Positions 1,511 through 35,557 of a DNA stretch of 64,000 nucleotides are shown here, piece after piece. Source of the DNA: Longimicrobiales bacterium (lineage in GTDB: Bacteria > Gemmatimonadota > Gemmatimonadetes > Longimicrobiales > Gaopeijiaceae); contig CBDFIQ010000001.1 of the NCBI GenBank assembly GCA_965248195.1, positions 1,248,001 to 1,312,000 of the forward strand, read 5' to 3'. Position 1 is the first letter of the stretch, and each line of letters begins with the position of its first letter. The position numbers and the translations under genes are program-made. Below the pieces are notes generated by a model, which ran no database searches, was not told the DNA's origin, and saw nothing but the letters and a program-made list of their open reading frames with translations.

Positions 1511-2836
1511 ATGATAAACTTGAATAATACCTTGGATAAGAGAAGAAGCCGGGGCTGTCCCGCGGGTAGTCGGTGGCGTCGCGCCGGGACCTTGGGGGCA
1601 TGCGCGCTCGGGGTCTTCATGGTGGCGGCCTGTGACAGCCTGCTGGAAGTGGAGCTTCCTGGACAGTTAAAGTCGTCAGACCTGGACAATCCCCGGCTGG
1701 CAGACGTGCTGGTCAGGAGTGTCCAGTCCGACTTCGACTGTGCGCTGTCGACCTATGTCTGGGCCGGCGGTCTATGGGGCCACGACCTGTATCAGAGCGA
1801 CAATTTCAGCCGGGGCCGCTTGACCCAGCTTCGGTCCAACGAGGTCTTGACCTTCGAACAGGATGAGTGCAACGAATTCACCTTTCCGCAAATCTATCTT
1901 CCGTTCCAGATCGTGCGCTTTCAGGGAGAGGAAGCAGTGAGGCTGATCGAGGGCTTCCCCGACGGCGAAGTTGAAGACAAGGACTTCCTACTCGGCAAGG
2001 CGCACGCCTATACGGGCTATGCCTACGAGATCCTGGGCGAAACCATGTGCGAGATGGCGTTCGACGGTGGTCCGGTCGCAACGCGTCAATCCGCGATGGA
2101 GACCGCGAAGCTCCGGTTCACGTCGGCGATCGACCACGCGAGTCTGGTCACCTCCGGCCCGAACGTCGCCGAGGCTCTCGAGATCGTCAACATGGCGTTG
2201 GTCGGTCGGGCGAGGGCGAGCCTGAACCTAGGGGATGTTGCCGGAGTATTGGCGGACGCGGGCGCGGTGGACGCGGACTTCGTCCGATTCGCGGACATGG
2301 ACGATAGCGATAGTCGGCGTTACAACCAGGTGCACAACAGAAACGAGCGGGCTGGGGGAAACTCTACGGTGCACCCGAGCTACGGGAACCTGATGGTGGG
2401 CGGTGTGCCGGACCCCAGGGTGGACGTCGTGTTCCAGCCCAACGTAATCCCATTCGACGGGGTTTCGGAAGTCTGGTATCAATTCAAGTATCCGGATAGG
2501 AGTGCCGACATTCCATTTTCCTCCTGGCGCGAGGCCCAGCTCATGATCGCGGAGGTAGATCCGGTGCAGTCCGTGGCGATCATCAACAATCTCCGTTCGG
2601 CCCCTTGGGGTTTGCCTGCGTACACCGCCGGGACTGCGGCCGAGGTTTTCGCGCAGGTGTGGGAGGAGCGGCGGCGAGAGCTCTTCCTGCAAGGAACCAA
2701 GATCGGAGACATGCTGCGGCTCGACATTCCCGGAGTCTCGACGGATGACTTCGAGACTGGTGTAAACCAGCGAGGCAACCCGTACGGACCGCACACCTGC
2801 TATCCCTTGCCGGATCAGGAGACTCTCGCTTTGTGA
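1511..2836 (+). CDS. SusD/RagB-family lipoprotein
   Basis: Lipobox [14 protein letters not shown] and [11 protein letters not shown] motifs; directly downstream of SusC. Confidence 0.9.
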
Positions 2837-5064
2837 GTCCCAAAATGAAGGCTGATTGGAGGGCCGGGAGGGGCTGGAGCGCACTGCCCCTGGTGGGTGT
2901 CGCTGTCGTGGCGGGCTGGTTGACCTCGTGCTCGACGGCGGAAGTCCACGAGCCGCAACAGACTTCCTACACGGACGCCCAGGCCCGTGCGGGTGCGGCG
3001 GTGTACTTCACGACATGCGCGAGCTGTCACCTCACGAACTTTCAGGGATTCGGTGAAGCTCCGGCGTTGGCGGGCCCTGATTTCCTGAATACGTGGGGTC
3101 CCCGGCCGGTGGCCGAGCTCCTGGAGTTGGTCGGGGCGTCCATGCCTCCTACGGCTCCCCAGTCCCTTTCGGACGAGGAATACACGTCGGTGGTGGCTTA
3201 CCTGCTGAGCGTGAACGGAGTGGAGGCGTCCGGAACCCAGCTCACCTCATCGTCCTCCGGGCCGGTCTTTGCTGGGATGGAAGCCGCCGAAGAGGTCGGC
3301 CCCAGTAGGCCGCCGTCCCCAGGCACGCCCGGCAATGTGCCCTCGCCCAACGCTTTCGACCGGCCTCCGCCACCCTCCGGCGAGGTCACCGAGATCCCTA
3401 CAGGCCGCGTCGTGACCTATCGTCCCGTGGAGGAGTTCGCCCCGGTGTTGCCAGGCGATCTGACTTCCCCCCCCGACGCGGATTGGCTGCACTGGCGCCG
3501 AACCCTGGATGGCCAGGGCTACAGTCCCCTTTCCCAGATCAACGGGAGCAATGTCGACGACCTGCAGCTCGCATGGGCGTGGGGCATGGAGCCTGGAACG
3601 AGCCAGACTACACCCTTAGTCCGGGACGGAGTCCTCTACCTTGCCAGCCAAGGCAATGTGATCCAAGCCTTGGACGCGGCGGAAGGCACGCTGCTTTGGG
3701 AGTACCGTCGGCGATTCCCGGAGGGGAGAGGGGGTGGAGCCGACTCCCGGAGCGTGCGAAGTCTGGCGATCTTCGAAGACCTGATTATCCTCGCCACGAG
3801 GGACGCCGCCCTCGTTGCGTTGGACGCCCGTACCGGTAAGCCTCGGTGGGAGACCCAGGTGGCCGACTGGGAAGAGGGATTCAACTACACCTCCGGATCC
3901 ATCGTCGCCGACGGGAAGATCCTCAACGGAATGAGAGGGTGCAGGAGCTTCGGAAGTAGCTGTTTCATCACGGCCCACGATGCGAAAACGGGTGAAGAAC
4001 TCTGGCGCACGCATACGATCGCGCGCCCCGGCGAGCCGGGTGGGGACACGTGGGGCGATCTTCCCATGGAGCTCCGGGCGGGCGTGGACGTTTGGATCCC
4101 CGGGACTTACGACCCGGAATTGGGGTTGGTCTACTACGGCACCGCCCAATCCAAGCCATGGATGGCAGTAAGTAGGGGGCTCACGACGGCCGACTCCACC
4201 CTGTACGCGAACTCGACACTGGCCCTCGACATCGATACGGGCGAGATCGTCTGGTACTTCACACACGTGCCCGGAGAGTCTCTGGATCTGGACGAGGCCT
4301 ATGAGCGAGTGCTTGTCGACGTAGACGACCGCCCGGTGGTCCTCAGCATCGGAAAGAACGGAATCCTCTGGAAGCTGGACCGGAGGGACGGCGCCTTCCT
4401 AGATCTGAAAGAGACCGTCTACCAGGACATCTTCGAGGAGATCGACCGGCAAGAGGGGTGGGTGCGCTACAGGGAAGACATCCGGAACATGCAGTTCGAC
4501 GAGTGGCTCTCCGTCTGTCCTGGCACAGCTGGTGGGCATAACTGGCACTCGACCGCCTACCATCCCGGGGCGCAGTTGCTCGTGATCCCCCTGAGCCAGA
4601 GCTGTATGGACATGATTCCGCGGGAAGTGGCGCTCGAGGAGGGCCGAGGCGGCTCAGGGGGCACACGCATGTGGCGGGAGAGCCCGGTCACGGACCAGCT
4701 CGGGAAGCTCGCGGCTTACGACGTATCTACCATGGAGGAGGTCTGGAGCGTCGAGCAGCGTGCGCCTTTCCTCACCAGCGTGCTGACCACCGGAGGAGGG
4801 CTCGCCTTTGCGGGCGACTACGACCGCCGTTTCCGGGCGTACGACGTCGAGACGGGCCAGGTGCTCTGGGAAACTCGCCTCGCCAGATCCGCGGAAGGGT
4901 TTCCGATCAGCTACGAGGTCGACGGCGTGCAGTACGTGGCCGTTCCCGCGGGGCAAGGAGGCGGAAGCCCTTGGCGGATCCCGACTTTCCTCGGCGCCGA
5001 GATGATCCAGCCCGAGGGAGACGGGCACAACGCGCTCTATGTTTTCCGGCTCCCGACCCGGTGA
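2833..5064 (+). CDS. PQQ-dependent dehydrogenase with N-terminal c-type cytochrome domain
   Basis: Signal/lipobox LTSC, CASCH heme motif, Pro-rich linker, PQQ propeller repeats ([22 protein letters not shown]), [14 protein letters not shown]; start could be ATG 2845. Confidence 0.9.
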
Positions 5065-5123
5065 GCGCGCGGAGCAGTCCCGGCCTCGCCGGGGTTGAGG
5101 TAGGAGTGGAGCGGACACGCCTC

Positions 5124-5170
5124 TTGTGAATCACACTTAAGAGGGGCTTCGGCCGATTGTGAATCACACT
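5124..5170. promoter_or_regulatory. Two copies of TTGTGAATCACACT (internal palindrome TGTGA-A-TCACA), 33 bp apart; candidate operator
   Basis: Exact 14-nt direct repeat at 5124-5137 and 5157-5170 upstream of the flavoprotein RBS. Confidence 0.5.
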
Positions 5171-5202
5171 CGAGAGAGCTTCGACCGAGGAGAATAGGCG
5201 CT

Positions 5203-6861
5203 TTGGACAAGCACAAGCACGGTGACGGGCGAATTAGCCGAGGGGACTTCCTGAAGAAGGGTTCGACCCTGGGTGTAGGCGCGGCAGCCTTAGGTGGGTT
5301 GGACGGGGGAGACCTGGGAGCCCAGGAGGTCGTATGGGATCGGGAGGCCGATTTCGTCACAGTCGGGGCGGGCACCGCGGGACTCGCCGCTGCCGTCTCG
5401 GCGCTCGATCACGGAGCGTCGGTGATCATGGTTGAGGCGAACACGGACATCGGTGGCCATGGGTTGGTGAGCGGGGGGAATGTTCACCTGGGTGGTGGGA
5501 CCAGTAATCAGCGAAAATTCGGAGTCGAGGATTCGGCGGACCGGGTCTTCGAGGACTGGGTGAGCCCCGACCATGTATTGAGCCGTTACAGCGACAGGGA
5601 CCTGGTACGTGCGTTTGCCGATGAAAACGCCGCCACCTTCGAATTCCTTATCGAGAACGGCGTCCAGTTTCAGGACCACTTGACCGGTCCCGATCGCGCT
5701 TCGACGGTGCGCCGACAGCAACGAACGGTACAATGGCCCATCGCAAGCGAGCGTGTCACGCACAATGCGACCCGAGTCGGCTCCGGTCTCATCAGGGCGC
5801 TGGAGAAGAGCGCGAGAGCGAAAGGTGTGGAGATCCTCTTGGAACACCGCATGACCGGGATCATCCGCGAGAACCCGTTCTCAGGGAGGGTTCTGGGCGT
5901 CACTGCGATGCACCGGGGCGTAAGCGTGAACATCCGTGCGACGAAGGGCGTCTTGGTTGCGACGGGGGGCAGCAGAAGCAACGTCGCCCTTCGCAGGACC
6001 TTCGACCCGAGACTCACCGAGGAGTATCAGGTCGCGGGGGAGCCCTGGTCCAAACAGAGTGGGGACGGAGAACTGGCGGGGATGGCGATCGGAGCGGCGC
6101 TATGGAGCACCGCGAATCAGACTGCCGAGGACATCAGGATAATCTCGAAGACGGCTCGCATCGGGTGTAAGTGGGGCTATGCCAGTCTCATTTGGGAGCC
6201 CGATAGCATGATGTTCCCTCGTGCACGCGCCTCGGGCCTCACCATTCGGGGTTGGCAAGACGCGATCATGGTGAAGCAGACCGGCCGGAGGTTCTGGAAC
6301 GAGATGGACGGAGGGTTCGATTTTTACGCGGCGGCTATGGCGTATAGTGGAGATGATTCTAAGAGGAATGGAGGCGGACCCATCTGGGCCATCTTCGATG
6401 CCGGCGCCGTGGAACGGCAGGGTTGGGATCCCAATCCTCCCTTCGTTGATCGCGACGGCTACTTCTTCAGTGGGGACACGATCGCGGAGCTCGCCGGCAG
6501 GATCGACAACGAGTACCAACTGGAGCCCATGCCGCCGAGGGCTCTCGAAGAAACGGTAGCGAGGTATAACTCCTTCGTGGATACGGGGACCGATCTGGAC
6601 TTCGGAAAGCCCACACCCATGCACAAGATCCAGACGCCGCCGTTCTACGCGGCCTGGTCCACACCGATTCTCCACGACTGCACGACCGGTCTGAGAACGA
6701 ACATGAAAGCCCAGGTCATGGACTACTACGGCCAGGTCATACCCGGCCTCTACTGCGCAGGCGAGTCGCAGGGGGGCTTCGCCCAGCACGGCCTCGGCCG
6801 ATGCCTCGTGTTCGGTCGCATCGCGGGAAGAGACGCGGCATTGAACAGTGGTGAGGCCTAA
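5203..6861 (+). CDS. FAD-dependent oxidoreductase (fumarate reductase flavoprotein / 3-ketosteroid dehydrogenase superfamily) with Tat-like signal
   Basis: VGAGTAGLAAA Rossmann motif, VLVATGG, IPGLYCAGE, GRCLVFGRIAG; N-terminal SRGDFLK; TTG start after GAGGAG. Confidence 0.88.
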   Translation: MDKHKHGDGRISRGDFLKKGSTLGVGAAALGGLDGGDLGAQEVVWDREADFVTVGAGTAGLAAAVSALDHGASVIMVEANTDIGGHGLVSGGNVHLGGGTSNQRKFGVEDSADRVFEDWVSPDHVLSRYSDRDLVRAFADENAATFEFLIENGVQFQDHLTGPDRASTVRRQQRTVQWPIASERVTHNATRVGSGLIRALEKSARAKGVEILLEHRMTGIIRENPFSGRVLGVTAMHRGVSVNIRATKGVLVATGGSRSNVALRRTFDPRLTEEYQVAGEPWSKQSGDGELAGMAIGAALWSTANQTAEDIRIISKTARIGCKWGYASLIWEPDSMMFPRARASGLTIRGWQDAIMVKQTGRRFWNEMDGGFDFYAAAMAYSGDDSKRNGGGPIWAIFDAGAVERQGWDPNPPFVDRDGYFFSGDTIAELAGRIDNEYQLEPMPPRALEETVARYNSFVDTGTDLDFGKPTPMHKIQTPPFYAAWSTPILHDCTTGLRTNMKAQVMDYYGQVIPGLYCAGESQGGFAQHGLGRCLVFGRIAGRDAALNSGEA

Positions 6862-6980: not shown

Positions 6981-8384
6981 ATGATGTCCGTCGCAGAAAA
7001 CACGTACGTAGGGACCCGAAGAGGATTTCTGGTTCTGACAGTCGTCGGATTGGTGGGCCTTCCGGGCGTTGTTGCCGGCCAGGACATCACCTTCGCCTCG
7101 GACGTCGCTCCGATTCTACAGCAGAACTGTCAGATCTGTCACCGACCGGGGGCGATCGGCCCGATGCCTCTGCTCACGTACGAAGACGCCAGGAGTTATG
7201 GTTTTTTTATCAAGATGAAGGTGGAGAGCCGACTGATGCCGCCCTGGCAGATTGTACGCGGTGTCGGGATCCAGGATTTCAAGAACGACCGCTCGCTGAG
7301 CGACGAAGAGATCAGCACGCTCGTCCAGTGGGTCGATTCGGGCATGCCGGAGGGAAACCCGGCGGATCTTCCAGAGCCTATCGATTGGGCTGCGCGTGAC
7401 GTGCTGGGTTGGCAGCTCGAGGGACAGCTGGGGCGCCCGCCGGATATGATCGTGGCTTCACCGCCGTTCGACGTGGTTCCCAACGGTCAAGACCAGTGGT
7501 CGTTCCCGATAACGAGGCTGGACGATCTGAAGGAGCGGAGGGTGGTCATGGCCGCCGAGATCAGGCCCGGGAATGTCGAGGCACGATACGTTTTTCACCA
7601 CGGCAACAGTCGGTTGGCCGCTTCGGCTGCCGGAAAGGACTACGACGTCTACCCCGAAGATGGCGGGACGACGCTCGAGCCCGGTGAGGAAATCTCATGG
7701 AACCTGCACTTCTTTCCTATCGGGCAGGAAGTCAAAGACGCCTTCATCGAAACCGGCGTGTGGTTCTACCCGAAGGACCAGGAGCCGCAGTTCGAGTCCT
7801 ATTCTACCACGTTCTTGGCTGATCCCATCAACAACCGCAGCGTCATGCCATCGGGTAATCCGTGTTGGAAGCAGCCCGCGGAGGCTGACTTGGACAGCGA
7901 GGCATGTACGCGGCTGACCAGATCCAACAGCCTTCTGATACCGCCCAATGGCCAAGCGATGCTGCAGGGCGTGCACGTGCTCGATCGGCCCATGCGGCTC
8001 CACAGTATTCGGGGGCACATGCACATGCGCGGCAGGCATCATTCGCTGGAAGCGATCTATCCCGATGGTAGGCATGAAATCGTGAACAGGATCAACTTCG
8101 ACCAGAGATGGCATATCGCGCACATCTATGAAGATCACGCGCGGCCGCTCTTCCCGAAGGGGACGGTCCTCATCGTCAACTCGTACTACGACAATACGGC
8201 AGACAACCCGACCAATCCCGATCCCGAGCAGTGGGTTACGTTTGGCAGACGGAGTGCCAGCGAGATGTCACACCTGTGGGTTGGGGTGACCTATTTCGAC
8301 AACGAGGAAGACTTCCAGAAGTTGGTAGAGGAGCGCGAACAGCGCAGACGGACGCCTGCGAACGCAGTAGGAGGAGATGGCTAA
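6981..8384 (+). CDS. Heme c-fused copper type II monooxygenase (PHM/DBH-like)
   Basis: Signal peptide, CQICH, FHHG, NLHF, RGHMH, SEMSH = full CuH (H,H,H) and CuM (H,H,M) ligand pattern. Confidence 0.82.
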   Translation: MMSVAENTYVGTRRGFLVLTVVGLVGLPGVVAGQDITFASDVAPILQQNCQICHRPGAIGPMPLLTYEDARSYGFFIKMKVESRLMPPWQIVRGVGIQDFKNDRSLSDEEISTLVQWVDSGMPEGNPADLPEPIDWAARDVLGWQLEGQLGRPPDMIVASPPFDVVPNGQDQWSFPITRLDDLKERRVVMAAEIRPGNVEARYVFHHGNSRLAASAAGKDYDVYPEDGGTTLEPGEEISWNLHFFPIGQEVKDAFIETGVWFYPKDQEPQFESYSTTFLADPINNRSVMPSGNPCWKQPAEADLDSEACTRLTRSNSLLIPPNGQAMLQGVHVLDRPMRLHSIRGHMHMRGRHHSLEAIYPDGRHEIVNRINFDQRWHIAHIYEDHARPLFPKGTVLIVNSYYDNTADNPTNPDPEQWVTFGRRSASEMSHLWVGVTYFDNEEDFQKLVEEREQRRRTPANAVGGDG

Positions 8385-9276
8385 CCGCTGGGTAGTTGCT
8401 ACGCTTCTGACCATTAGTTGGACTCCCCTCGAGGGGCAGCAGCCCGGCTCCGCCGGTTATGACTTCATGCCGGGGACGTTTCTGCCGTCCGGTCAGCCCA
8501 TTGTACCGATTTTCGAGGGGTGGTATCCGAATCCGGACGGGACCTACGGGCTCTGTTTCGGATACTGGAGCGGCAACACCGAGGAAACGCTGAGCATCCC
8601 ACTGGGATCGGACAACGTCATCGAGCCGAGGCAGTATGACGGCAATCAGCCGACGCTATTCAGGCCAAGACCGAGAACGGGGTGGCGAAGGCATTACTGC
8701 ACCTTTGTGATCGACGTGCCGGCGGACTGGGGGAGCCAGGATGTGATCTGGACGGTCGGGAACCATGGGGAGACGTATGCGGCGGTAGGGCACCTGACGG
8801 TGCCTTCCTATATGCTCGACGAACCAGTGGCCGCGGGGCGTGCGTCCTCCATCCCCGAAGACGAACCGTGGGATTCGAGGGCGGGCTACGGGAGCTGGCA
8901 GGGCGCTGAGGCACCCCTGCTCCAATTCGTCGAGCCGGGCGGGCCGGAAGGGATCGGACGGAGTGGCGTGACTGCCGGACCGGTCACGGTCCGCGTCGGA
9001 CAGCCACTGACGCTGAGGGTCAGGGTGGGCACCCCCGACGGGAGGGACGCCCGCTGGTGGGTTGGATGGTGGGAGCACCAAGGTCCCGGGACCGTGACGA
9101 TCGGCCAGCGAGAGATGGAAGCCGACCCGACGACTGACTATTTGGCGACGACCACGGCAACGTTCAATGAACCGGGCGACTACGTTATCGCTTTGCAGGC
9201 GATCGAGAGCATTCAATCCTTCGAGCGCTTCTGCTGTTGGACCAACGGCTACGTGGAGGTCACCGTTACACGGTAA
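8377..9276 (+). CDS. Exported hypothetical protein with C-terminal Ig/PKD-like domain and CCWTNGY motif
   Basis: Overlaps upstream stop by 8 nt, AGGAGG RBS; paralog of 29177..30133 (FEGWYPN, QPTLF, TATF.EPG.Y, CCWTNGY). Confidence 0.85.
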   Translation: MANRWVVATLLTISWTPLEGQQPGSAGYDFMPGTFLPSGQPIVPIFEGWYPNPDGTYGLCFGYWSGNTEETLSIPLGSDNVIEPRQYDGNQPTLFRPRPRTGWRRHYCTFVIDVPADWGSQDVIWTVGNHGETYAAVGHLTVPSYMLDEPVAAGRASSIPEDEPWDSRAGYGSWQGAEAPLLQFVEPGGPEGIGRSGVTAGPVTVRVGQPLTLRVRVGTPDGRDARWWVGWWEHQGPGTVTIGQREMEADPTTDYLATTTATFNEPGDYVIALQAIESIQSFERFCCWTNGYVEVTVTR

Positions 9277-9379: not shown

Positions 9380-10441
9380 ATGAAGCATGCCAATCGGATC
9401 GGGTCGACATTCCTCGCCGTCTTCGCGGCGTTGGTCGTGATGTTGGCCGGGGATCTACACGCCCAAGGAGCCAACAATCCGTATCACGCCGAAGACGCTT
9501 GGGAGAACCTCCCGGAGGGGAGGGTCTTCGGAGCGCTCACTGGGGGCTTCCCTGATCCCGATGGCGAGCACCTGTGGATGTTGAACAGGTGTGGCGCAAA
9601 CATATGCGCGGATAGCGACCTGGACCCGATCCTCAAGTTCGACATGGACGGGAACGTGGTGGACAGCTTCGGCGGAGGCCTATTCGGGTTCCCTCACGGT
9701 TTCTTCCTGGACCACGACGGTTTTCTGTGGGTGACCGAGGGTGCGCCCGACGGAGACAATCGCGCAGAACCTGGCTACAGGCGTGGGTTGGGCCATCAGG
9801 TCCACAAACTCAACCAGCGGGGAGAGGTGGTGATGAGCCTGGGCGAGGCCGGAGTCCACGGGGACGATGAGGACCACTTCAATGGACCCGCTGATGTTCT
9901 GGTCGCTCCGAATGGTGATATCTGGGTCGCGGATGGGCATCGCGGCGGCAACAACCGCATCGTCAAATTCGACAGCGAGGGTCGATTCCTCCTGGCGGTG
10001 GGTGGTGGTGTCGGTTCAGAGAGCAAGGAAGCGGGCAGGTTTGATGATCCGCATGGTCTCGCGATGGATTCCAGAGGACGGCTCTTCGTCGCCGATCGGG
10101 GTAACAGTCGGATTCAGATCTTCGACCAGACGGGCGATCTCCTCGCGATTTGGACGCAGTTCGGAAAGCCGAGCGGTCTCTTCATCGACGGTGACGACAT
10201 CCTCTATGTGGTCGACGGGTTGTCGGGTCTGGAACGTCCCGCATGGCGGGACAACCCCGGATGGGAGCAGGGTATCCGGATCGGAGACGCTGAAACGGGG
10301 TGGGTGACGGCCTTCATTCCCAACGTTTCTGCGGCGGCCGGTGCCGGCATGGAGTTCCTTGCCGTGGATTTCGAGGGCAACATCTACGTCAACGACCTCT
10401 CCCGAGTGCGTTTGGCGAAGTACACGCAGTTCAGGCCGTAG
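9380..10441 (+). CDS. NHL-repeat beta-propeller, peptidyl-alpha-hydroxyglycine alpha-amidating lyase (PAL)-like
   Basis: Signal peptide; FPHG, FNGPADV, DPHGL, ADRGNSRIQIFD repeats. Confidence 0.88.
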   Translation: MKHANRIGSTFLAVFAALVVMLAGDLHAQGANNPYHAEDAWENLPEGRVFGALTGGFPDPDGEHLWMLNRCGANICADSDLDPILKFDMDGNVVDSFGGGLFGFPHGFFLDHDGFLWVTEGAPDGDNRAEPGYRRGLGHQVHKLNQRGEVVMSLGEAGVHGDDEDHFNGPADVLVAPNGDIWVADGHRGGNNRIVKFDSEGRFLLAVGGGVGSESKEAGRFDDPHGLAMDSRGRLFVADRGNSRIQIFDQTGDLLAIWTQFGKPSGLFIDGDDILYVVDGLSGLERPAWRDNPGWEQGIRIGDAETGWVTAFIPNVSAAAGAGMEFLAVDFEGNIYVNDLSRVRLAKYTQFRP

Positions 10442-10539: not shown

Positions 10540-11004
10540 CTACGCGCCGGCCGCCTCGATGTGTATGTCCTCGAGTGCGGACGCGTCGGCCGCCAGGTCC
10601 GCCTCGCCCGCCGGATAGCCGTTCTCCCTCAGTATGTAGCTGATGATGTCCGCATATTCCTCGGGGCTTAGACTGCCCGGATTACCTTCCGGCATTAACG
10701 TCGACGTCACCTGGAAGAAGTCCCCCACCGTGCGACCCACCCAAACCAACCTGAACCTGGCGCCGGTGAAGTCATTGATCCGGTGGCATGAGGTGCACAC
10801 TTGCTGAAACCTCGCCTGGCCCCGAGAGGCTTGCTGTGCCGTGAATACCCCGTCCAATACCGAGCTGCCAGCAGGTGTAGCGGCCTCCGGCTGTGACGGG
10901 CCGGCAGCAGGGGCAGTAGCCTCCGGCCGCTGGACCGACGCGCACGCCGTCAGGACCAATGCCGAGACCAGCGCGAGCACGACCGAAGCCAATGAATGCC
11001 TCAA
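10540..11004 (-). CDS. Monoheme cytochrome c lipoprotein
   Basis: Lipobox LTAC, CTSCH, distal MP; homologous to heme domain of 2833..5064. Confidence 0.88.
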   Translation of the reverse strand: MRHSLASVVLALVSALVLTACASVQRPEATAPAAGPSQPEAATPAGSSVLDGVFTAQQASRGQARFQQVCTSCHRINDFTGARFRLVWVGRTVGDFFQVTSTLMPEGNPGSLSPEEYADIISYILRENGYPAGEADLAADASALEDIHIEAAGA

Positions 11005-23264: not shown

Positions 23265-24332
23265 ATGTCACTACATACTTGCAAGAGACCGAGTCTCCTC
23301 CTGTCACTGATCATCGGTCTGATATCACTTTCGGCAGTGACAACCCACGCGCAGGGCCGAGTGGAGCCTATCAACGATCTCCCACATCCCTATGAAACCA
23401 CGAGAAATTGGGGCACGCTGGGGGGGGAAAGGGAATTGGGGTCGACGAGCGGGATTCACGTCGATCGTGACGGCAGGTCCATTTGGGCTTTCGAGAGGTG
23501 CGGTGGAGGTTCCTGCATCGGTTCTGGTGTGGATCCCATCCTCAAATTGGATGAGTCCGGAAACCTCCTTCGTTCCTTCGGCGCGGCGATGTTCGTATAC
23601 CCGCACGGCATCCATGTGGATCGGGACGGAAACGTGTGGGTGGCTGACGCCCGAGGCCCGAGTGAGCGAGAAATTGAGAGGTACCCGGACGCGAGACGGA
23701 AGGGCCAGCAGGTCGTCAAATTCAGTCCGGAAGGTGAGGTCCTCTTGATACTGGGAACGCCAGGCGTCACCGGAGACCCACCACGAGCCTTGACCGAGCC
23801 GACGGACGTTGTCACCGCTCCGAATGGCGACATCTTTGTCGCCGAAGGCCACGCCGGGACGGGGGTCGCACGTGTCTCGAAGTTTGCACCCGACGGGACG
23901 TTCATCAAGAGCTGGGGATCGTTGGGGTCCGACCGGGGCGAATTCAGGGTGACCCATAATCTTGCCATGGATTCGCAGGGCCGACTCTTCGTGGCCGATC
24001 GGCTGAACTACAGAGTCCAGATCTTCGATCAGGAGGGGAATCTCCTCGACGTGTGGAAGCAGTTCGGTCAACCGAGCGGGCTCTACATCGACGACAACGA
24101 CGTGCTTTACGTGGCCGACTCCCACTCCTGGGGGCCCAACAACAGGGGGTGGAGGAAGGGCATCAGGATCGGGAGCGTGCGCGACGGGACGGTTAAATAT
24201 TTTTTGCCCGATCTCGAGTCGACCACTCACGCCAACAGCGGAGCGGAGGGCGTCACGGCCGACGCACAGGGCAATGTGTATGGGGGGATCGTGCGCAGGC
24301 GAGGGATAGAGAAACACGTTCTACGCAATTAG
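23265..24332 (+). CDS. NHL-repeat PAL-like protein
   Basis: Signal peptide; YPHGIHVD, PTDVVTAPNGDIFVAEGH, ADRLNYRVQIFD. Confidence 0.88.
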   Translation: MSLHTCKRPSLLLSLIIGLISLSAVTTHAQGRVEPINDLPHPYETTRNWGTLGGERELGSTSGIHVDRDGRSIWAFERCGGGSCIGSGVDPILKLDESGNLLRSFGAAMFVYPHGIHVDRDGNVWVADARGPSEREIERYPDARRKGQQVVKFSPEGEVLLILGTPGVTGDPPRALTEPTDVVTAPNGDIFVAEGHAGTGVARVSKFAPDGTFIKSWGSLGSDRGEFRVTHNLAMDSQGRLFVADRLNYRVQIFDQEGNLLDVWKQFGQPSGLYIDDNDVLYVADSHSWGPNNRGWRKGIRIGSVRDGTVKYFLPDLESTTHANSGAEGVTADAQGNVYGGIVRRRGIEKHVLRN

Positions 24333-27501: not shown

Positions 27502-28845
27502 TTAGCCACCGCCCTGCTGCGCGACCGTCTGGACCTCTCTTTCAGCCTTGAGCGTCTCGTAACCCTCATCGTCGAGGTGAGTTACGGCTATCCAGGCATG
27601 CGACATCTCGTCGGCCGTGCGGCTGCCCCGCCCGACCCAAACCTCCGGATCGGGGTTGTACGGATTGTTTTCCGTATTGTCATACCATGCGGTGAGAATC
27701 ATGACCGCACCGGTGGGCACCAACGGCGCCACATCCTCTTCGTACAGGTGGCTCAGGTGCCAATGCGCATTCCAATTGGAGATCATACTCACCATCTCCC
27801 GCTCGCCCGTCTCCGGGTAGAAGATCTCCAAGGACTTAGCGACCAGCCTCAGGTGCCCGTGTGGCTGGAAGCTGTCGATACGGACCGGGTGGTCCCACGT
27901 GTGGAACCCCTGGGTCATCGCAGTCCCGTGGGGAGCAATATCGAGGTCGCCCTCTAAGCGGTAATTGCGCAAACTCTGCTCATACTCGGGCTCATAACCC
28001 TCGGGATAAAGCCAGAAGGCGACCGACATCACGTCGTCCACGACCTCTTCGCCCATGGGGTAGAGGTGGATGCTCCAGCGCACATAGGAGTCGACAGGAA
28101 GCAGCCGCGCGGCGTCACTCGGGACAATCTCCCCGAGTTTTCCAAGCGCGTATTCGGTGAAACGACCACGCTGGCTCTTCAGCTCACCGTCTTCCATGAC
28201 GCTCATGGTGGTGTTGGCGTGGTGCACGACCTTATAACCCTCCAGGGACGGCTTGACCTCGATGGCCCTGATATACCGAGGCGTAGTGTTCCCGATGGGA
28301 ACGAGGGGCTCCCACCACAGGTCTTGGCCATCGGCCGGAACCGTAATGGGCTTCGACTCGACCACGATGTCCGGCTCTCCGTAGTCGTACTCGGCCGCCA
28401 GCCGCCACTCGCCGAGGTCAGGGAATCTCCGGGGGGGGGGCATGTCCGCCGGGTCGCCCTCGACGGCGCCCTGGTCGACCCACTGGGCGATCGTCTCGAT
28501 GTCTTCCGAAGACAGACGCTTGTCACTCTTCAGGGCCTGAACGCCCACATCGGTATCGTAGTGATACGGCGGCATTTGCTGCGTGGTCACCTTGAGCTTG
28601 ATCAGCGGTGCGTACAGCTTCGCCTGCTCGTAGGTAATCAGAGACATGGGCCCGATCGAGCCATCCCGATGGCACAGCTGACAGTTCTGCTGAAGAATCG
28701 GGGCTACGTCCCTCGTGAACGTGACGTGAGCCATCTCTTGGGAGAGGGCCTGTCCGTGAAAGGATGCGAGGGCGACGCTGACCACCGCGGGCACGCTAGC
28801 CCAGCCAACTCTCCGCCTCCATGAATCGGATCTCTTCTCTCTCAT
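27502..28845 (-). CDS. Heme c-fused copper type II monooxygenase (PHM/DBH-like), copy 1
   Basis: CQLCH, VVHHA, SIHLY, QPHGH, DEMSH; AGGAGAGG RBS. Confidence 0.85.
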   Translation of the reverse strand: MREKRSDSWRRRVGWASVPAVVSVALASFHGQALSQEMAHVTFTRDVAPILQQNCQLCHRDGSIGPMSLITYEQAKLYAPLIKLKVTTQQMPPYHYDTDVGVQALKSDKRLSSEDIETIAQWVDQGAVEGDPADMPPPRRFPDLGEWRLAAEYDYGEPDIVVESKPITVPADGQDLWWEPLVPIGNTTPRYIRAIEVKPSLEGYKVVHHANTTMSVMEDGELKSQRGRFTEYALGKLGEIVPSDAARLLPVDSYVRWSIHLYPMGEEVVDDVMSVAFWLYPEGYEPEYEQSLRNYRLEGDLDIAPHGTAMTQGFHTWDHPVRIDSFQPHGHLRLVAKSLEIFYPETGEREMVSMISNWNAHWHLSHLYEEDVAPLVPTGAVMILTAWYDNTENNPYNPDPEVWVGRGSRTADEMSHAWIAVTHLDDEGYETLKAEREVQTVAQQGGG

Positions 28846-29176: not shown

Positions 29177-30133
29177 CTAAGGGGATACCGTTACGCGGAT
29201 GTACCCGTTCGTCCAGCAACATTGGTCGCCGGGGGAGCCTTCGAGGGGGTTAAAGCTATCGACGCGGACGCGCAGGATGTATGTGCCGGGTTCGCCGAAC
29301 GTCGCCGTCGTTGTGGCTTCACCATCTTCGTCGGGCTCCGGCTCCCCGCGTTCACCATCTTCGTCGGGCTCCGGCTCCTCGCCAAACTCTGCCGGACTAG
29401 GTCCCTGATGCGTGTACCATTTCACACCAGGAGTAATACGCTCTCGATCACTCCCTACCCCCCGGGCCTCCGGGTCAAACCGATCAGCGACCCAGACCGT
29501 CAGCGTCAGCGGTGTGCCGACGGACGCGGCCATGGGAAGGGGATTCCGAACGCTTCCAATCGGGCTCTCTCCCTCTAACGCCACTGGATCGGTAGCGGGA
29601 TTGCCGGATGTAGACATCGGGCCCCAGAGTTCGAGCCCATTCCGGCTCAACTTGAGCATCGGGGGCAGGGAGCCCATCGCCATCGCACCGTGACTGAGGG
29701 CATAGGCGCCTATCCCGATCCTTCCCGGGACTGAATGTGTCACGCCATGAGCGGTAATCGTCCAGACCACCCTGCCGCCGCTTTCCGCAAAATCCCCCGG
29801 CAAGGTGATGGTGAAGACACCATTATCCCGACGCGGCGAGAAGAGAGTAGGTTGTGTCCCATTGAACTCGGCTGGTTCGATAGAGTTGTCCGGCCCGACG
29901 GGGAGGCTCACTACCTCTTCCCGATTGCGGTTGAAGTATCCGAATGAGACCGTATAGGTGCCGTTCGCATTCGGGTACCATCCCTCAAAAAAAGGGGTTA
30001 CAGCGAGACCGTGGGTAGCCAAGTTTCGCTGCTGCGCTGACAGCGGCCTTCTATCCTGTGCGTCCAGGGGTGCCCAACTCAGAACGGCAAGCGCCAGTGC
30101 GAGGCATCCGACGCATACACGGTGCTTCATCAT
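29177..30133 (-). CDS. Exported hypothetical CCWTNGY protein, paralog of 8377..9276
   Basis: AAGGAG RBS before ATG 30133; FFEGWYPN, QPTLF, TATFGEPGTY, QCCWTNGY. Confidence 0.85.
   Translation of the reverse strand: MMKHRVCVGCLALALAVLSWAPLDAQDRRPLSAQQRNLATHGLAVTPFFEGWYPNANGTYTVSFGYFNRNREEVVSLPVGPDNSIEPAEFNGTQPTLFSPRRDNGVFTITLPGDFAESGGRVVWTITAHGVTHSVPGRIGIGAYALSHGAMAMGSLPPMLKLSRNGLELWGPMSTSGNPATDPVALEGESPIGSVRNPLPMAASVGTPLTLTVWVADRFDPEARGVGSDRERITPGVKWYTHQGPSPAEFGEEPEPDEDGERGEPEPDEDGEATTTATFGEPGTYILRVRVDSFNPLEGSPGDQCCWTNGYIRVTVSP
29318..29378. repeat. In-frame tandem duplication, 33-nt period (EPEPDEDGE x2)
   Basis: TTCACCATCTTCGTCGGGCTCCGGCTCC at 29318 and 29351. Confidence 0.9.
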
Positions 30134-30228
30134 CGACTCCTTATTCATCAATGTGGCTTTCACTCAACTCTACGGCGACACGCCCGCTCGCTGAAGGCCG
30201 AGTCCGGGGCGTAGAAACGAAATAAATG

Positions 30229-30315: not shown

Positions 30316-31659
30316 CTAGCCGCCGCCCTGCTGCGCGACCGTCTGGACCTCTCTTTCAGCCTTGAGCGTCTCGTAACCCTCATCGTCGAGGTGAGTTACG
30401 GCTATCCAGGCATGCGACATCTCGTCGGCCGTGCGGCTGCCCCGCCCGACCCAAACCTCCGGATCGGGGTTGTACGGATTGTTTTCCGTATTGTCATACC
30501 ATGCGGTGAGGATCATGACCGCACCCGCGGGCACCAACGGCGCCACATCCTCTTCGTACAGGTGGCTCAGGTGCCAATGTGCACTCCAATTGGAGATCAT
30601 ACTCACCATCTCCCGCTCGCCCGTCTCCGGGTAGAAGATCTCCAAGGACTTAGCGACCAGCCTCAGGTGCCCGTGTGGCTGGAAGCTGTCGATACGGACC
30701 GGGTGGTCCCACGTGTGGAACCCCTGGGTCATCGCAGTCCCGTGGGGGGCAATATCGAGGTCGCCCTGTAAGGCGTAACTGCGCAAACTCTGCTCATGCT
30801 CGGGCTCATAACCCTCGGGATAAAGCCAGAAGCCGACCGACATCACGTCGTCCACGACCTCTTCGCCCATGGGGTAGAGGTGGATGCTCCAGCGCACATA
30901 GGAGTCGACAGGAAGCAGCCGTGCGGCGTCACTCGGGACAATCTCCCCGAGTTTTCCAAGCGCGTATTCGGTGAAACGACCACGCTGGCTCTTCAACTCA
31001 CCGTCTTCCATGACGCTCATGGTGGTGTTGGCGTGGTGCACGACCTTACGGCCCTCCACGGAAGGCTTGACCTCGATGGCCCTGATATACCGAGGCGTAG
31101 TGTTCCCGATGGGAACGAGGGGCTCCCACCACAGGTCTTGGCCGTCGGCCGGAACCGTAATGGGCTTCGACTCGACCACGATGTCCGGCTCGCCGTAGTC
31201 GTACTCGGTCTTCAGCCGCCAATCGCCGAGGTCAGCGAACCTCCGGGGCGGGGGCAGGTCCGCCAGGTCGCCCTCGACGGCGCCCTGGTCGACCCACTGG
31301 GCGATCGTCTCGATATCTTCCGGAGACAGACGCATGTCACCCTTCAGGGCCTGAATGCCTACATCGGTATCGTAATGATACGGCGGCATTTGCTGCGTGG
31401 TCACCTTGAGCTTGATCAGCGGTGCGTACAGCTTCGCCTGCTCGTAGGTAATCAGAGACATGGGCCCGATCGAGCCATCCCGATGGCACAGCTGACAGTT
31501 CTGCTGAAGAATCGGGGCTACGTCCCTCGTGAACGTGACGTGAGCCATCTCTTGGGAGAGGGCCTGTCCGTGAAAGGATGCGAGGGCGACGCTGACCACC
31601 GCGGGCACGCTAGCCCAGCCAACTCTCCGCCTCCATGAATCGGATCTCTTCTCTCTCAT
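30316..31659 (-). CDS. Heme c-fused copper type II monooxygenase (PHM/DBH-like), copy 2
   Basis: Same motifs as copy 1; about 19 aa differences in 447 by manual comparison. Confidence 0.85.
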   Translation of the reverse strand: MREKRSDSWRRRVGWASVPAVVSVALASFHGQALSQEMAHVTFTRDVAPILQQNCQLCHRDGSIGPMSLITYEQAKLYAPLIKLKVTTQQMPPYHYDTDVGIQALKGDMRLSPEDIETIAQWVDQGAVEGDLADLPPPRRFADLGDWRLKTEYDYGEPDIVVESKPITVPADGQDLWWEPLVPIGNTTPRYIRAIEVKPSVEGRKVVHHANTTMSVMEDGELKSQRGRFTEYALGKLGEIVPSDAARLLPVDSYVRWSIHLYPMGEEVVDDVMSVGFWLYPEGYEPEHEQSLRSYALQGDLDIAPHGTAMTQGFHTWDHPVRIDSFQPHGHLRLVAKSLEIFYPETGEREMVSMISNWSAHWHLSHLYEEDVAPLVPAGAVMILTAWYDNTENNPYNPDPEVWVGRGSRTADEMSHAWIAVTHLDDEGYETLKAEREVQTVAQQGGG

Positions 31660-31715: not shown

Positions 31716-33782
31716 TTACGGTAGCCGCAGTGCCACCAGCGCCGCAGGGGTCCGTCCGCCGGTCTGCACCACGATGAACTGTTTCCCTTCGTGCATGTAC
31801 GTCATCATGCCGTACTGGCCGGCGCCTGGCAGATCGATGGTCCCCAAGCGCTCACCCGTCAGCTTGTCCACGGCATGGAGACGCGCCTCACCACCCCCGC
31901 CCTCGGCCGTCAACAGCAGCGTCTTCGTGACCATCGTGATGGCCTTCGAGGTCTGGCCGGTGTTAGGCAGGTCCACCCCTTGCAGTGCCGGATGGTTCCT
32001 GATTCGCTCGGGCGTGTCCCCGTTGGGGATCCACCAAAGGTGCTCCCCCGTGTTCATGTCGATGGCCGTGATCCGGCCGTAAGGGGGCTTCATTATCGGA
32101 AGGCCTTGAGGGCCCCTGAAGTCTCCGCGATCGATGACGGCATATCCCGAGTATGTCGTGCCCGTGGTCATGAAGTTGTCGGGTTCATCGATGTCGCGGC
32201 CGGGGACGAGCCTTTCGGATCTGCACCCCTTGTTGGACGACACATAGAGGATCCCGGTCTCCGGATCAGCGGATGTCGGACCCGGGATGTTGGTCGCGCC
32301 CGACGGACAGCTGACGAACGAGCGTAGGCCGGATGGATGGCCCACCTGGATCGGCGGGTTAAAGATGGGTCCGATCCGGTAGTTCTGAATGATCCCAAGT
32401 GCATCTAGGCGGAGCTCGGGCGTGAAGTCGATCAGCTGGTCCTCGGTGAGCCCCTGCTCTTCGTACGCCAGCGGCCACGTGGGAAAAGGCTGGGTGAGAG
32501 ACAGTTGCTCACCGGGAACCTCAGACTGGGGCACCGGGCGTTCCTCGATGGGCCAAATCGGCTCGCCGGTCTCCCGGTTGAAGGTGTAGGCCCAGCCCTG
32601 CTTGGTGGTCTGGACCAGGATCGGCGTCGGCTCTCCGTCCACCGTGACGTCCAGCAGGACCGGGGCGGTGGGATTGTCGAAGTTCCAGATGTCGTGATGA
32701 ACGGTCTGGAAATGCCACACTCGCTCTCCAGTCTGGACGTCGAGGGCGATGACGCTTGTGCCGAACAGGTTGTCTCCCGGGCGGAAGCCGCCATAGAAGT
32801 CTATCGTGGGCGGGTTGGTGGGAACATACACAATGCCCAGCTCGGGGTCGGCCGACATGGGGGCCCACGACGAGACATCCCCAGTGGTCAGCCATGCGCC
32901 GTTCTCCCACGTGTCATGGCCGAATTCGCCCGGCCTCGGGATGACGTGGAATTTCCACAGGAACTCACCGGTCCGGGCATCGTAGCCCATGATGTCGCCT
33001 GGAACGTTCTCGGTTCGCGTCTGGTTGTACCCCTGTTCGTGGGAATTACCTACCACTATCACGTTGTTCACCACGATGGGCGGCGACGAACTGGTCACCA
33101 TCCCGATTTCCCGGGGGATTCCTGCGTAATGGTCGAGCGGCTGGCCGAGCTCCTCAAAGGGAAGCCAGTCCCTGACCAGATCTTCCAACGCGTCCACGAC
33201 CCCGGTCTCAGGAAAGCCCTCTATCGGTACGGGCCTTCCGAATCCCTCCAGGTGCTGGCCGGTCTTGGCGTCGAGTGCGTGGAGGAAGAAGCCGGGAGTC
33301 GTGATGTAGATCACCCCGCGGCCATCGACCTCGGCGTAGGTAACTCCCTTTCCATAGTTCTGCCGCATGGAGCGCTCAAACCGAAACGTGTTGGGCTCGC
33401 GGTATGTCCAAAGGATTTCACCCGTAGCAGCGTCCATGGCGACCAACTGTCGCCGCGAGCTGACAGCCGTGTAGAGGATGCCGTCGACGAAGGTTGGCGT
33501 GGACTTGGAGGCGAAGGTGACCGTGGGGGCAAAGTTGTCCGCTCGCCAGATCCAAGCGACCTCCAGATCCTCGAAGTTGCTGGCGTCGATCTGGTCCAGG
33601 GGCGAATACCGCGTATGGGCCGCGTCCCCACCCAGGTAGTGCCATTCTCCGTTCTCCGTCCCAGGTCCACCCTGCCCGACGAGGGAAGCCGGTGCTGCCA
33701 GCAGAACGCTGAATGCGAGGGCAAGATACAATCCATTTGTACTCTGTCTGAGCTGTGGCTGGTCTCCTCTGGACATCTTCAT
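31716..33782 (-). CDS. PQQ-dependent dehydrogenase, paralog of 24347..26404
   Basis: RYSPLDQIDASN, WHFQTVHHDIWNFD, KPPYGRITAIDMNTGEHLW; GAGGAG RBS. Confidence 0.9.
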   Translation of the reverse strand: MKMSRGDQPQLRQSTNGLYLALAFSVLLAAPASLVGQGGPGTENGEWHYLGGDAAHTRYSPLDQIDASNFEDLEVAWIWRADNFAPTVTFASKSTPTFVDGILYTAVSSRRQLVAMDAATGEILWTYREPNTFRFERSMRQNYGKGVTYAEVDGRGVIYITTPGFFLHALDAKTGQHLEGFGRPVPIEGFPETGVVDALEDLVRDWLPFEELGQPLDHYAGIPREIGMVTSSSPPIVVNNVIVVGNSHEQGYNQTRTENVPGDIMGYDARTGEFLWKFHVIPRPGEFGHDTWENGAWLTTGDVSSWAPMSADPELGIVYVPTNPPTIDFYGGFRPGDNLFGTSVIALDVQTGERVWHFQTVHHDIWNFDNPTAPVLLDVTVDGEPTPILVQTTKQGWAYTFNRETGEPIWPIEERPVPQSEVPGEQLSLTQPFPTWPLAYEEQGLTEDQLIDFTPELRLDALGIIQNYRIGPIFNPPIQVGHPSGLRSFVSCPSGATNIPGPTSADPETGILYVSSNKGCRSERLVPGRDIDEPDNFMTTGTTYSGYAVIDRGDFRGPQGLPIMKPPYGRITAIDMNTGEHLWWIPNGDTPERIRNHPALQGVDLPNTGQTSKAITMVTKTLLLTAEGGGGEARLHAVDKLTGERLGTIDLPGAGQYGMMTYMHEGKQFIVVQTGGRTPAALVALRLP

Positions 33783-33884: not shown

Positions 33885-33903
33885 GATAACATAGGGGTGT
33901 CCC

Positions 33904-34250: not shown

Positions 34251-34297
34251 CACCACAGAATCTGCTGCGCTTCCGCCCCGCTTGCCCAGTACACATT

Positions 34298-34341
34298 TCG
34301 TGGACGCTTGTGCTGCGGCTCGTGGACGCTTGTGCTGCGGC
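34298..34341. repeat. 22-nt perfect tandem repeat x2
   Basis: TCGTGGACGCTTGTGCTGCGGC twice. Confidence 0.9.
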
Positions 34342-34403
34342 GGGCTCTTCGGAACAACTCACCTCCCTTGCTGCACCCTAATGCGCAACTCCACACCGAG
34401 TGG

Positions 34404-34437
34404 CGTGGACCGCGCCCGAGTTAGGGCGCGGTCCACG
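34404..34437. terminator. Perfect 14-bp hairpin with NHL gene stop codon in its loop
   Basis: CGTGGACCGCGCCC-GAGTTA-GGGCGCGGTCCACG. Confidence 0.6.
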
Positions 34438-35557
34438 GCAGGGCCAAGTGCGTGTGGTCAGCACCTGGTCGGGGCCGCATCTTTTGCGCACGGCCGGCGA
34501 ACGTCTCCGCCCAGTAGAGATTCCCTTCGGTATCCATGTGAAACCCGTGGATTCCCCAGTTGAACCCGGGCGCCAACCCGTACGTACCAAACGCGTAGAT
34601 CAGCTTCCCGGTGAGGTCGTACTTCAACATCTTGTTGGTCACCCCGTCGGCGACCCAGAGATACCCGTCCGAGGACATCTGGAGGACGTACGGCGAATTG
34701 ATGTCCGGCCACACATCCAGGAAGTTGCCATTCTCGTCAAAGACTTGAATTCGACTGTTTGAGCGGTCGGCGACATACACACGCCCGTTCTGGTCGGCGG
34801 CAATCCCGTGAGGCAGGTTGAACTGGCCAGGACCCGTGCCGGGCTCGCCCCAGGCCATGACGAAGTCGCCGTTCCCGTCAAACTTCACGACGCGGGTGTT
34901 CACGTACCCGTCGCTGACGAAAGTCGAGCCGTCGGGGAGGAAGGCGATAGCGGTCGGCCGGTTGAAGTGGGTGTCGTCGTTCCCGGGCTCCAGTCGCTGG
35001 CCGAGGGTGAGGACCAGCTCTTCACCGTCATTGGTGAACTTGAAAACCTGGTGGAGCTGGTCGTCCACCACCCAAACGTGTTTTTCGGGATCGTACGGGT
35101 TGATGGCCACCTGGTGCGGTCCACGCCCACCCGGGAATAAGTGGTCCCACTGCTCCCAGCTCTCTATGATCTTGCCGCTGGCATCGACGACGTAGATGCA
35201 GTTGACGAATCGATTGCCACCGATCGCACGGTTGCCAGGGGTTGCGGCGATGGCGTCCCAGCCTGGCTCGACCCCTTCCGGCCTGGGGAGCTCGCCCCGC
35301 TGCACCACGAAGATCCTGTCCGGCGACTCCGCGAAGATGCCCGTGGTGGCGCCCCAGACCCAGTCTTCATGACCGGGCAGCGGCTGCGGCCAGTTGGTCT
35401 GGACCTCGTAGGGACCGTTCAGGTACGGGTCTTCGCCCCCTTTCTCCTGTTCCCCAGCGGAGGTGTCCAGATTCGCGGCTGGCGAGTCACCGCCACACGC
35501 CGACAACGAACCAAGCAGTAGGACCACGGTGAACGTAATCATCGATGAGCGCGCCAT
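34421..35557 (-). CDS. NHL-repeat PAL-like lipoprotein with complete PAL-type catalytic set
   Basis: Lipobox LSAC; QRG, GPHQ, SDGYVNTR, LPHG, ADRSNSRIQ, GIHG; AAGGA RBS before ATG 35557. Confidence 0.88.
   Translation of the reverse strand: MARSSMITFTVVLLLGSLSACGGDSPAANLDTSAGEQEKGGEDPYLNGPYEVQTNWPQPLPGHEDWVWGATTGIFAESPDRIFVVQRGELPRPEGVEPGWDAIAATPGNRAIGGNRFVNCIYVVDASGKIIESWEQWDHLFPGGRGPHQVAINPYDPEKHVWVVDDQLHQVFKFTNDGEELVLTLGQRLEPGNDDTHFNRPTAIAFLPDGSTFVSDGYVNTRVVKFDGNGDFVMAWGEPGTGPGQFNLPHGIAADQNGRVYVADRSNSRIQVFDENGNFLDVWPDINSPYVLQMSSDGYLWVADGVTNKMLKYDLTGKLIYAFGTYGLAPGFNWGIHGFHMDTEGNLYWAETFAGRAQKMRPRPGADHTHLALPWTAP

Follow-up and report, generated by a model that had tools for sequence, protein, structure and literature searches.

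The stretch analysed here, a window of 64,000 nucleotides (G000:C1:1248001-1312000) from the genome of a Longimicrobiales bacterium (G000; 4.86 Mb, two contigs, 91.8% complete), carries two gene pairs, each made up of a heme c-fused copper monooxygenase (MO) homolog and a partner protein with the motif CCWTNGY, together with a third MO gene. The MOs are related in fold to peptidylglycine α-hydroxylating monooxygenase (PHM) and dopamine β-hydroxylase (DBH), whose two-copper core is used by animals for peptide hormones and noradrenaline. The original prediction had described the locus as a dedicated periplasmic peptide-amidation module, in which pyrroloquinoline quinone (PQQ) dehydrogenases would reduce the MOs through heme c and adjacent NHL propellers resembling the peptidylglycine lyase PAL would complete the reaction. 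Open reading frame (ORF) calling and translation recovered all the genes it had listed: three MOs, two CCWTNGY proteins, five NHL propellers, three PF01011 proteins, a flavoprotein, a free cytochrome c and two SusC-like genes (Table 1). An N-terminal hydrophobic stretch was seen in 19 of the 19 genes checked, by a crude test and not by a signal-peptide predictor. The results lead us to a different reading, to which we give an even chance: a periplasmic two-subunit copper hydroxylase family that would act on varied organic substrates and would be reduced through its own heme.

Regarding the three MOs, the predicted ligands stood and the predicted domain matches did not. Six copper ligands (HH...H...HxH...M) and a CxxCH heme motif occur in all three proteins, but the proposed hidden Markov model search with Cu2_monooxygen and Cu2_monoox_C matched none of them at E<=0.01, and single-sequence searches of PDB, Pfam and NCBIfam with the window MOs retrieved no copper domain, so that the MOs can be assigned only through a profile or a fold. 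A profile of 146 MO homologs found human DBH (E 2e-9), and a more diverse profile of 41 rows (A5, first row the MO at 6981) found both DBH (E 1.2e-11) and rat PHM (E 9e-9); in the profile alignments the His-His, His, His-x-His and Met ligands are in register with those of rat PHM and human DBH. Structure prediction, proposed as a further check, led to the same fold: the AlphaFold2 model of the MO at 30316 (pLDDT 95.5) aligned with DBH (4zel) at a VIA-align Z of 21.3 (root-mean-square deviation 3.6, 305 aligned positions) and with 25 PHM entries at Z 15.7-20.3 (20.3 for 5wja), the next fold reaching Z 7.9. The complete ligand set is conserved in 25 of the 26 MO paralogues of G000 and in 141 of 146 aligned homologs. 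PF01082/PF03712 rose above cut-off in one G000 paralogue and the PF03712 cut-off was passed by four of 30 homologs scanned; databases attach PF03712 to some family members, and relatives are labelled hypothetical or cytochrome c in public sources.

His/Met axial ligation is typical of electron-transfer cytochrome c. Among MO homologs the Cys, Cys and His of the heme motif are at least 90% conserved and the Met of an M-P-P motif is invariant, which fits a His/Met electron-transfer heme; from this conservation we infer, in agreement with the original prediction, that the heme is placed to replace ascorbate as the point of electron entry. Cytochrome c assembly genes are present in G000. The family comprises 11,484 clusters at 50% identity (E<=0.001), with 26 copies in G000, 33 in G090 and 19 in G091. 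A fused redoxin was found in 16 of 30 long MO homologs scanned, and a search for longer fused forms, over 1165-3325 residues, gave two proteins, TPR and RND-type fusions. The signal of the MO at 6981 contains a twin-arginine-like motif, unusual for a c-type cytochrome, which may mean that the protein is exported already folded or bound to its partner.

The recurrence of the MO and CCWTNGY pair was borne out. Each of the 21 partners in G000 lies no more than 400 bp from an MO on the same strand, and a partner lies within 500 bp of 22 of the 26 MOs as against 1.6% of 2382 background genes. The 19 unambiguous pairs show both gene orders (13 one way, 6 the other), so the pair survives rearrangement, and MO and partner distances co-vary (Mantel rho 0.84, a value reached in 0 of 2000 permutations). 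Across 77 related GTDB loci, which represent the MO subfamily with Gln in the substrate site (Gln-type, see below) and are labelled mostly Gemmatimonadota, Vicinamibacterales and Gammaproteobacteria, the partner is present at 69, and at 53 of the 56 with full flanks. Among 272 MO homologs there are four complete fusions of MO and partner, in which the partner precedes the MO, follows it or is divided on either side of it; a fifth fusion is partial. Four cassette-bearing loci (L001, L051, L069, L071) carry the labels Nitrosomonas, Bifidobacteriaceae and Klebsiella, which may be binning or naming errors.

The partner itself belongs to an unnamed protein family. That at 29177 has 1267 homologs, with no Pfam domain in any of 120 among the matches listed; Pfam and NCBIfam scans assigned it to no family, comparison with Atlas clusters gave no common Pfam family, and a sequence search of solved structures found no match. 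Its model (pLDDT 87.8) folds as two Ig-like domains, for which the fold search returned generic Ig-like structures only (best Z 9.5 over 110 residues, others <=7.5). C-C-W-T is invariant in 108 close homologs, while among the G000 partners the Trp is replaced by Phe or Tyr in three of the 15 with a Cys-Cys pair and the motif is missing in six of 21. These six stand with the six MOs that have Glu in the substrate site. The partner was also considered as the precursor of a quinoprotein with a cysteine or tryptophan tryptophylquinone (CTQ/TTQ) cofactor, a candidate rejected on the non-invariant Trp and the missing motifs. Redoxin-fused MOs had no CCWTNGY partner where checked (G015, and 0 of 20 loci of another lineage treated below). 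Prediction of an MO-partner complex gave a median score of 0.82, but one unrelated control reached 0.72, and the result is taken neither for nor against a complex. The partner would be a fixed subunit that presumably binds its MO.

Table 1. Coordinates of the monooxygenase cassettes and of their neighbours in the window
Feature	Position	Strand	Basis or remark
Heme c-fused PHM/DBH-fold copper MO, Arg at PHM Arg240 position (core part)	6981..8384	+	Six ligands and CxxCH
Partner (CCWTNGY), two Ig-like domains (core part)	8377..9276	+	Overlaps MO stop by 8 bp; family model, fold searches, pairing
Heme c-fused PHM/DBH-fold copper MO, Gln at Arg240 position as in DBH (core part)	30316..31659	-	AlphaFold2 model and structure alignment
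Partner (CCWTNGY) (core part)	29177..30163	-	Homolog family, model
MO, recent duplicate of that at 30316, without partner gene of its own	27502..28845	-	DNA and protein identity
Cytochrome c-fused PQQ-type dehydrogenase, neighbour	2833..5064	+	PF01011, PF00034
FAD flavoprotein, flavocytochrome c/fumarate reductase fold, neighbour	5203..6861	+	PF00890
PAL-like NHL propeller with His in place of Tyr654 and Glu in place of His786 (variant), neighbour	9380..10441	+	Alignment positions
Free monoheme cytochrome c, lipoprotein-like, neighbour	10540..11004	-	CxxCH; PF13442 above cut-off; lipobox-like
SusC-like gene	41-1426		Cut by window edge
SusC-like TonB-dependent receptor, neighbour	11529-14609	+	TIGR04056 352.7 bits, cut-off 368.25
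SusD-like gene, neighbour	14675-16078	+	Named by position only
PAL-like NHL propeller, His/Glu variant, neighbour	16351..17445	+	
PAL-like NHL propeller, full Arg/His/Tyr/His/Arg/His set, neighbour	18888..20393	+	Nearest MO 7.1 kb off
PAL-like NHL propeller, His/Glu variant, neighbour	23265..24332	+	
PQQ-type dehydrogenase, neighbour	24347..26404	+	PF01011
PQQ-type dehydrogenase, neighbour	31716..33782	-	PF01011; 56 bp upstream of MO at 30316
PAL-like NHL propeller, full PAL set, neighbour	34421..35671	-	Likely start near 35557; aligns to rat PAL 3fvz/5wm0

The order PQQ-type dehydrogenase, MO, CCWTNGY protein does occur twice in the window, as predicted, in cassettes that are independent (identity 39% between the MOs, 35% between the partners and 30% between the PQQ-type proteins), and both have a same-strand PQQ-type gene upstream and, no more than 3 kb away, an NHL gene. 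The MO at 27502 shares 95.4% DNA identity with that at 30316 over 1512 bp (27368-28876 vs 30186-31690) and 95.7% protein identity; the flanks are common to both copies, so sequencing runs cannot separate them. Adjoining the duplicate, the gene at 26421-27461(-) encodes the N-terminal domain and plug of a SusC-like protein but no barrel. Of the proposed SusC/SusD importers, the two SusC-like genes are present, but the SusD-like genes match no Pfam family. A promoter and terminator scan gave results at chance level. Further along, at 37300-40931(-), tandem 81% identical genes combine carboxypeptidase-regulatory-like, CxxCH and Vgb-lyase-like propeller segments, the second copy being split into ORFs 39179-40294 and 40266-40931.

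We take Arg240, which binds the carboxylate, Asn316 and Tyr318 to be the residues of PHM that bind peptidyl-Gly. The Arg240 position is occupied in the 26 G000 MOs by Arg (11), Gln (6), Glu (6) or other residues (3); none of them has Asn316, a single one has Tyr318, and no paralogue combines Arg240 with Tyr318. In the window the three positions read Arg/His/Trp in the MO at 6981 and Gln/His/Trp in the other two, so that of the substrate residues of PHM proper the carboxylate Arg is found in one of three window MOs and Asn316 and Tyr318 in none.

True PAL relatives are present in the window, as had been proposed, but of the five propellers two have the full PAL residue set. With an 87-residue piece of the protein at 34421 the best match was rat PAL, aligned through Tyr654, with His690, Arg706 and His786 also placed. 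Those at 34421 and 18888 keep the equivalents of Arg533, His585, Tyr654, His690, Arg706 and His786, the histidines presumably being the three metal ligands of PAL, whereas those at 9380, 16351 and 23265 have His at the Tyr654 and Glu at the His786 position. Tyr654 and Arg706 form the catalytic dyad (PMC10303134). Lyase activity on α-hydroxyglycine substrates is putative for the two full-set proteins, and the His/Glu subclass probably uses a different metal or catalyses a different reaction. The residue sets are distributed such that the Arg-type MO at 6981 is followed by a variant propeller, the full PAL lying near the Gln-type MOs. Among the 47 propellers of G000, 19 have the full set, 17 are His/Glu variants and 11 are other.

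A strict-threshold profile had first suggested that MO and PAL co-occur across genomes, a candidate association dropped when a PAL profile search of 14 MO-negative relatives plus G015 revealed PAL-like genes in five of the 15. Genomes lacking an MO profile match carry 11 (G017), 9 (G014), 3 (G012), 1 (G026) and 1 (G030) such genes, including 12 full-set propellers (6 in G017, 4 in G014, which is 97% complete, and 1 each in G012 and G030), while in G015 an MO is present but the propeller search returned no match. At L161:7329-10813 (G090), partner, MO and full-set PAL-like propeller follow one another on a single strand. In G000 itself (G000:C2:728072-730870) a HupE-like permease gene and a full-set propeller gene are divergently oriented, any MO being more than 112 kb away, which suggests that the propeller needs a dedicated metal supply.

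The three PQQ-type dehydrogenases were identified as predicted, PF01011 being found in all three. Their propellers lack the vicinal Cys pair, the protein at 2833 is below the cut-off of every quinoprotein NCBIfam model, and against TIGR04528 (acido-empty-quinoprotein group A) the window proteins score 198-288 bits with a cut-off of 650; they are thus not members, although they share with that group the missing Cys pair and a genome in which pqqC was not found. The pqqC search was negative in G000, G005, G006, G011 and G016 (two of the four relatives being single-contig), and as a positive control it matched 13 of 61 genomes of the phylum (one, G086, unpublished). Uptake of PQQ from outside is reported to be common (PMC12124388), so that the failure to find pqqC weakens a quinoprotein donor without excluding it; the dehydrogenase at 2833 is a possible, non-dedicated electron donor. 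The protein at 31716-33782(-) has Asn where that at 24347 has Asp in a W-D-x-D motif, a form present in 14 of 43 paralogues. As for other redox neighbours, an FAD protein lies within 1.5 kb of three of 23 cassettes (P 0.019, uncorrected), and at L002 (5473-7698), L003 and L004 a NosR-like gene (FMN_bind plus 4Fe-4S) is directly upstream of the MO cassette, with a flavoprotein downstream; the NosR-like protein is a possible membrane electron donor to the MO.

The claim of a dedicated four-part module was assessed by gene linkage. G000 holds 26 MO, 47 NHL, 43 PQQ-type, 25 DUF5916 and 16 SusC-like genes, clustered in islands. Within 5 kb of its 26 MOs there are NHL genes in 7 cases and PQQ-type genes in 8 (background 8.6% and 9.0%), and the control family DUF5916 shows comparable enrichment (NHL 8/25, PQQ 6/25). 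When gene labels were shuffled, PQQ-type genes near 7 of 23 cassettes (null 6.97, P 0.58) and NHL genes near 6 of 23 (null 7.41, P 0.82) did not exceed expectation. NHL genes are found within 5 kb of four of 33 MOs in G090 (the genome of L006) and four of 19 in G091 (that of L066), again in line with the label shuffle (P 0.32 and 0.27). The corresponding PQQ counts, at least two of 33 in G090, where 83 of 360 candidates were scored, and three of 19 in G091, exceed neither a uniform nor a shuffled null at this distance; at 1.5 kb the G091 count is also three of 19 (uniform null P 0.021). Across the 77 loci PQQ-type genes lie within 5 kb in 19 and NHL genes in seven, and all four parts come together within 5 kb in three. 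MO-NHL or MO-PQQ fusions are absent from the 272 homologs (lengths of 784-1164 residues, from the best 150 rows only). Thus the proposed neighbourhood survey returned only the MO and CCWTNGY pair as recurrent, and PQQ-type and NHL genes did not rise above the shuffle. A metagenome survey with an Arg-type MO query gave 54 loci, redundant and short, with NHL genes at nine, five of these being one arrangement; in 13 Arg-type metagenome loci the partner was present at 13, a PQQ-type gene at five and an NHL gene at three. Recurring unlabelled neighbours of the 77 loci (MoxR/vWA, methyltransferase, kinases; none in more than eight) were set aside as lineage synteny.

Several observations weigh against the two-subunit hydroxylase reading and the looseness of linkage that it assumes. 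The label-shuffle null is conservative, as real partnerships among island genes raise its expectation, and against a uniform null NHL genes are enriched near MOs in both G090 (P 0.022) and G091 (P 0.006). A PQQ-type gene is directly upstream on the same strand in nine of the 77 loci, and the genes at 31716 and 30316 are probably co-transcribed; RNA-library contigs of a ~93% identical relative span the 3' end of the former and the whole of the latter, weak evidence that comes from two runs of one study and in which no transcript is shown. NHL genes tend to accompany Arg-type MOs within 5 kb (5/11 vs 2/15 for other MOs, Fisher P 0.09), and in 31 relatives the MO and the 34421-type propeller have 16 of their 17 genomes in common. 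Finally, identity of the MO to PHM and DBH is 10-16%; copper as the metal, monooxygenase activity and the substrates are putative assignments, and the heme-to-copper path and CuH/CuM geometry are presumed.

Pairing of MO and PAL was observed in a different lineage. At L162:1564-12053 (G091) genes for a CstA-like transporter and a HupE-like protein lie together with two for redoxin-heme-MOs and two for full-set propellers, the CstA and HupE labels having been read from sequence without a family scan. A HupE orthologue was found in 20 of 30 other genomes searched of the family of G091, and its 20 loci (L166-L185) contain a full-set propeller at 19, an MO at 15, a CstA-like transporter at 16, and neither a CCWTNGY partner nor a PQQ-type gene at any; gene order varies, and at 10 of the 20 an MO has both the Arg240 and the Tyr318 equivalents. 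These genomes are kin, and the cluster therefore counts as one lineage. An order-wide search for the G091 MO matched one of 61 genomes, and this search was too broad. The HupE/PAL/redoxin-heme-MO/CstA cluster is a better bacterial PHM plus PAL candidate than the present window. Tentatively, and leaning against rather than for it, one may picture bacterial periplasmic PHM plus PAL chemistry without ascorbate, with heme c-fused MOs hydroxylating N-acylglycines or peptides that end in Gly and PAL-like lyases freeing glyoxylate, as a widespread route of degradation for dissolved organic nitrogen and possibly the origin of eukaryotic PAM; the MO at 6981, its partner and the His/Glu propeller at 9380 would then be a variant pair.

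In the reading that we consider evenly balanced between right and wrong, the large subunit would consist of an N-terminal His/Met heme c followed by two PHM/DBH domains binding CuH (three His) and CuM (two His and Met). Single electrons would enter the heme from whichever periplasmic donors are available (cytochrome pool, flavoproteins, quinoproteins) and pass to copper, where O2 would be activated and a C-H bond hydroxylated. The small subunit, with its two Ig-like domains mostly ending in a variable vicinal Cys-Cys loop, would most likely cap the substrate cleft or load and handle copper, and the 26 paralogues, with their differing site residues, would most likely be catabolic enzymes that attack a variety of imported organic compounds. 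PAL-like propellers and PQQ-type dehydrogenases would belong to the same expanded periplasmic toolkit, sharing islands with the MOs and not acting as dedicated partners. A loosely coupled two-step N-dealkylation for catabolism, in which some MOs, mainly of the Arg type, hydroxylate N-acylglycine-like compounds at the carbon adjoining the amide nitrogen and PAL-like propellers, with genes at any site in the genome and no fixed operon, split the carbinolamide into amide and glyoxylate or aldehyde, appears rather unlikely. It is favoured by the 19 full-set and 17 His/Glu propellers of G000, the Arg240 equivalent in 11 of 26 MOs with its NHL trend, the genome overlap of MO and propeller, and the HupE cluster, which shows that such a pairing exists in bacteria; yet some genomes with full-set propellers gave no MO match, G015 shows the reverse, the Asn316 and Tyr318 positions are not kept in the window, and the PQQ query has a genome profile similar to that of the MO (19 of 31 relatives), so that the MO-PAL overlap may reflect lifestyle in genomes that are not independent.

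The copper core might instead serve as a reductase, oxidase or peroxygenase for O2, H2O2, NO or nitrite, fed by the heme. Fused heme c and redoxins would suit an electron sink, and the titles of structure entries record nitrite, azide and CO bound to PHM, but so many paralogues (26-33 per genome), with clefts that vary in their residues and partners that co-vary, would be superfluous for a sink of a single small gas, and we regard this as improbable. Even less credit goes to the dedicated PAM-like module (PQQ-type dehydrogenase, heme c, copper MO and adjacent PAL, acting on imported peptides or signal peptides). The arrangement of both window cassettes agrees with it, as does the full-set PAL upstream of the second; against it stand the four parts found together in three of 77 loci, the null shuffles in three genomes, the missing fusions, and a mismatch of residues, the cassette nearest a full PAL having Gln and the Arg-type cassette being followed by a variant propeller. 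The failure to find pqqC also counts against it, and by its own criterion of co-occurrence across genomes the module is largely refuted. Amidation of peptides for signalling gained no support, and no peptide precursor was noticed. Least probable of all, in our judgement, is that the partner is the MO's own substrate, its Cys-Cys-Trp segment being oxidised to a CTQ/TTQ-like cofactor or to modified cysteines: one-to-one pairing and the invariant C-C-W of close homologs would be expected, but the substitutions and losses of the motif described above would not, and the MO-partner fusions fit a subunit better than a maturase and its substrate.

Compared with known systems, the window MOs share with PHM, the PAM core (1phm, 1opm, 5wja), the two-domain fold and ligand register, and at 6981 the Arg240 position; they differ in being bacterial and 12% identical, in the fused heme c, the fixed partner, the lack of fusion or fixed linkage to PAL, the 26 copies per genome and the substrate residues. 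DBH, tyramine β-monooxygenase and MOXD provide the best structural and profile match, and DBH shares the Gln two residues before the first CuM His with two window MOs. DBH carries a DOMON domain, in place of which the window MOs have heme c, with no vesicular ascorbate system; the Glu after the CuH His pair is Asn in these. PAL, for whose relatives the CDD family name NHL_PAL_like exists, is matched by the window propellers in the residues given above, but these are stand-alone proteins with 47 paralogues, include three variants and occur also in genomes that gave no MO match. Redoxin (AhpC/TSA)-cytochrome c-Cu2_monoox_C fusion proteins resemble the MOs, by domain annotation only, in joining heme c to a copper core, and differ in the fused redoxin and in having no CCWTNGY partner where checked. 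PHM is described as widespread in eukaryotes, and PHM/DBH enzymes are treated as eukaryotic (PMC8812541). A search of literature listings found no paper on the heme c-fused bacterial MO family; studies of PAM evolution and their supplements may mention bacterial homologs.

Electron delivery and the open or closed copper mechanism of PHM and DBH are debated (PMC11234856, a source that also defines the CuH/CuM ligands). Through the built-in heme c, the transfer of single electrons to CuH/CuM could be followed by spectroscopy in an enzyme that does not depend on ascorbate, and expression of the bacterial MOs should be less difficult than that of their animal counterparts. With 19-33 copies per genome in uncultured Gemmatimonadota, Acidobacteriota and Gammaproteobacteria, and given its very large size, the family may constitute an unrecognised route by which dissolved organic matter is hydroxylated at C-H bonds, and may also supply biocatalysts.

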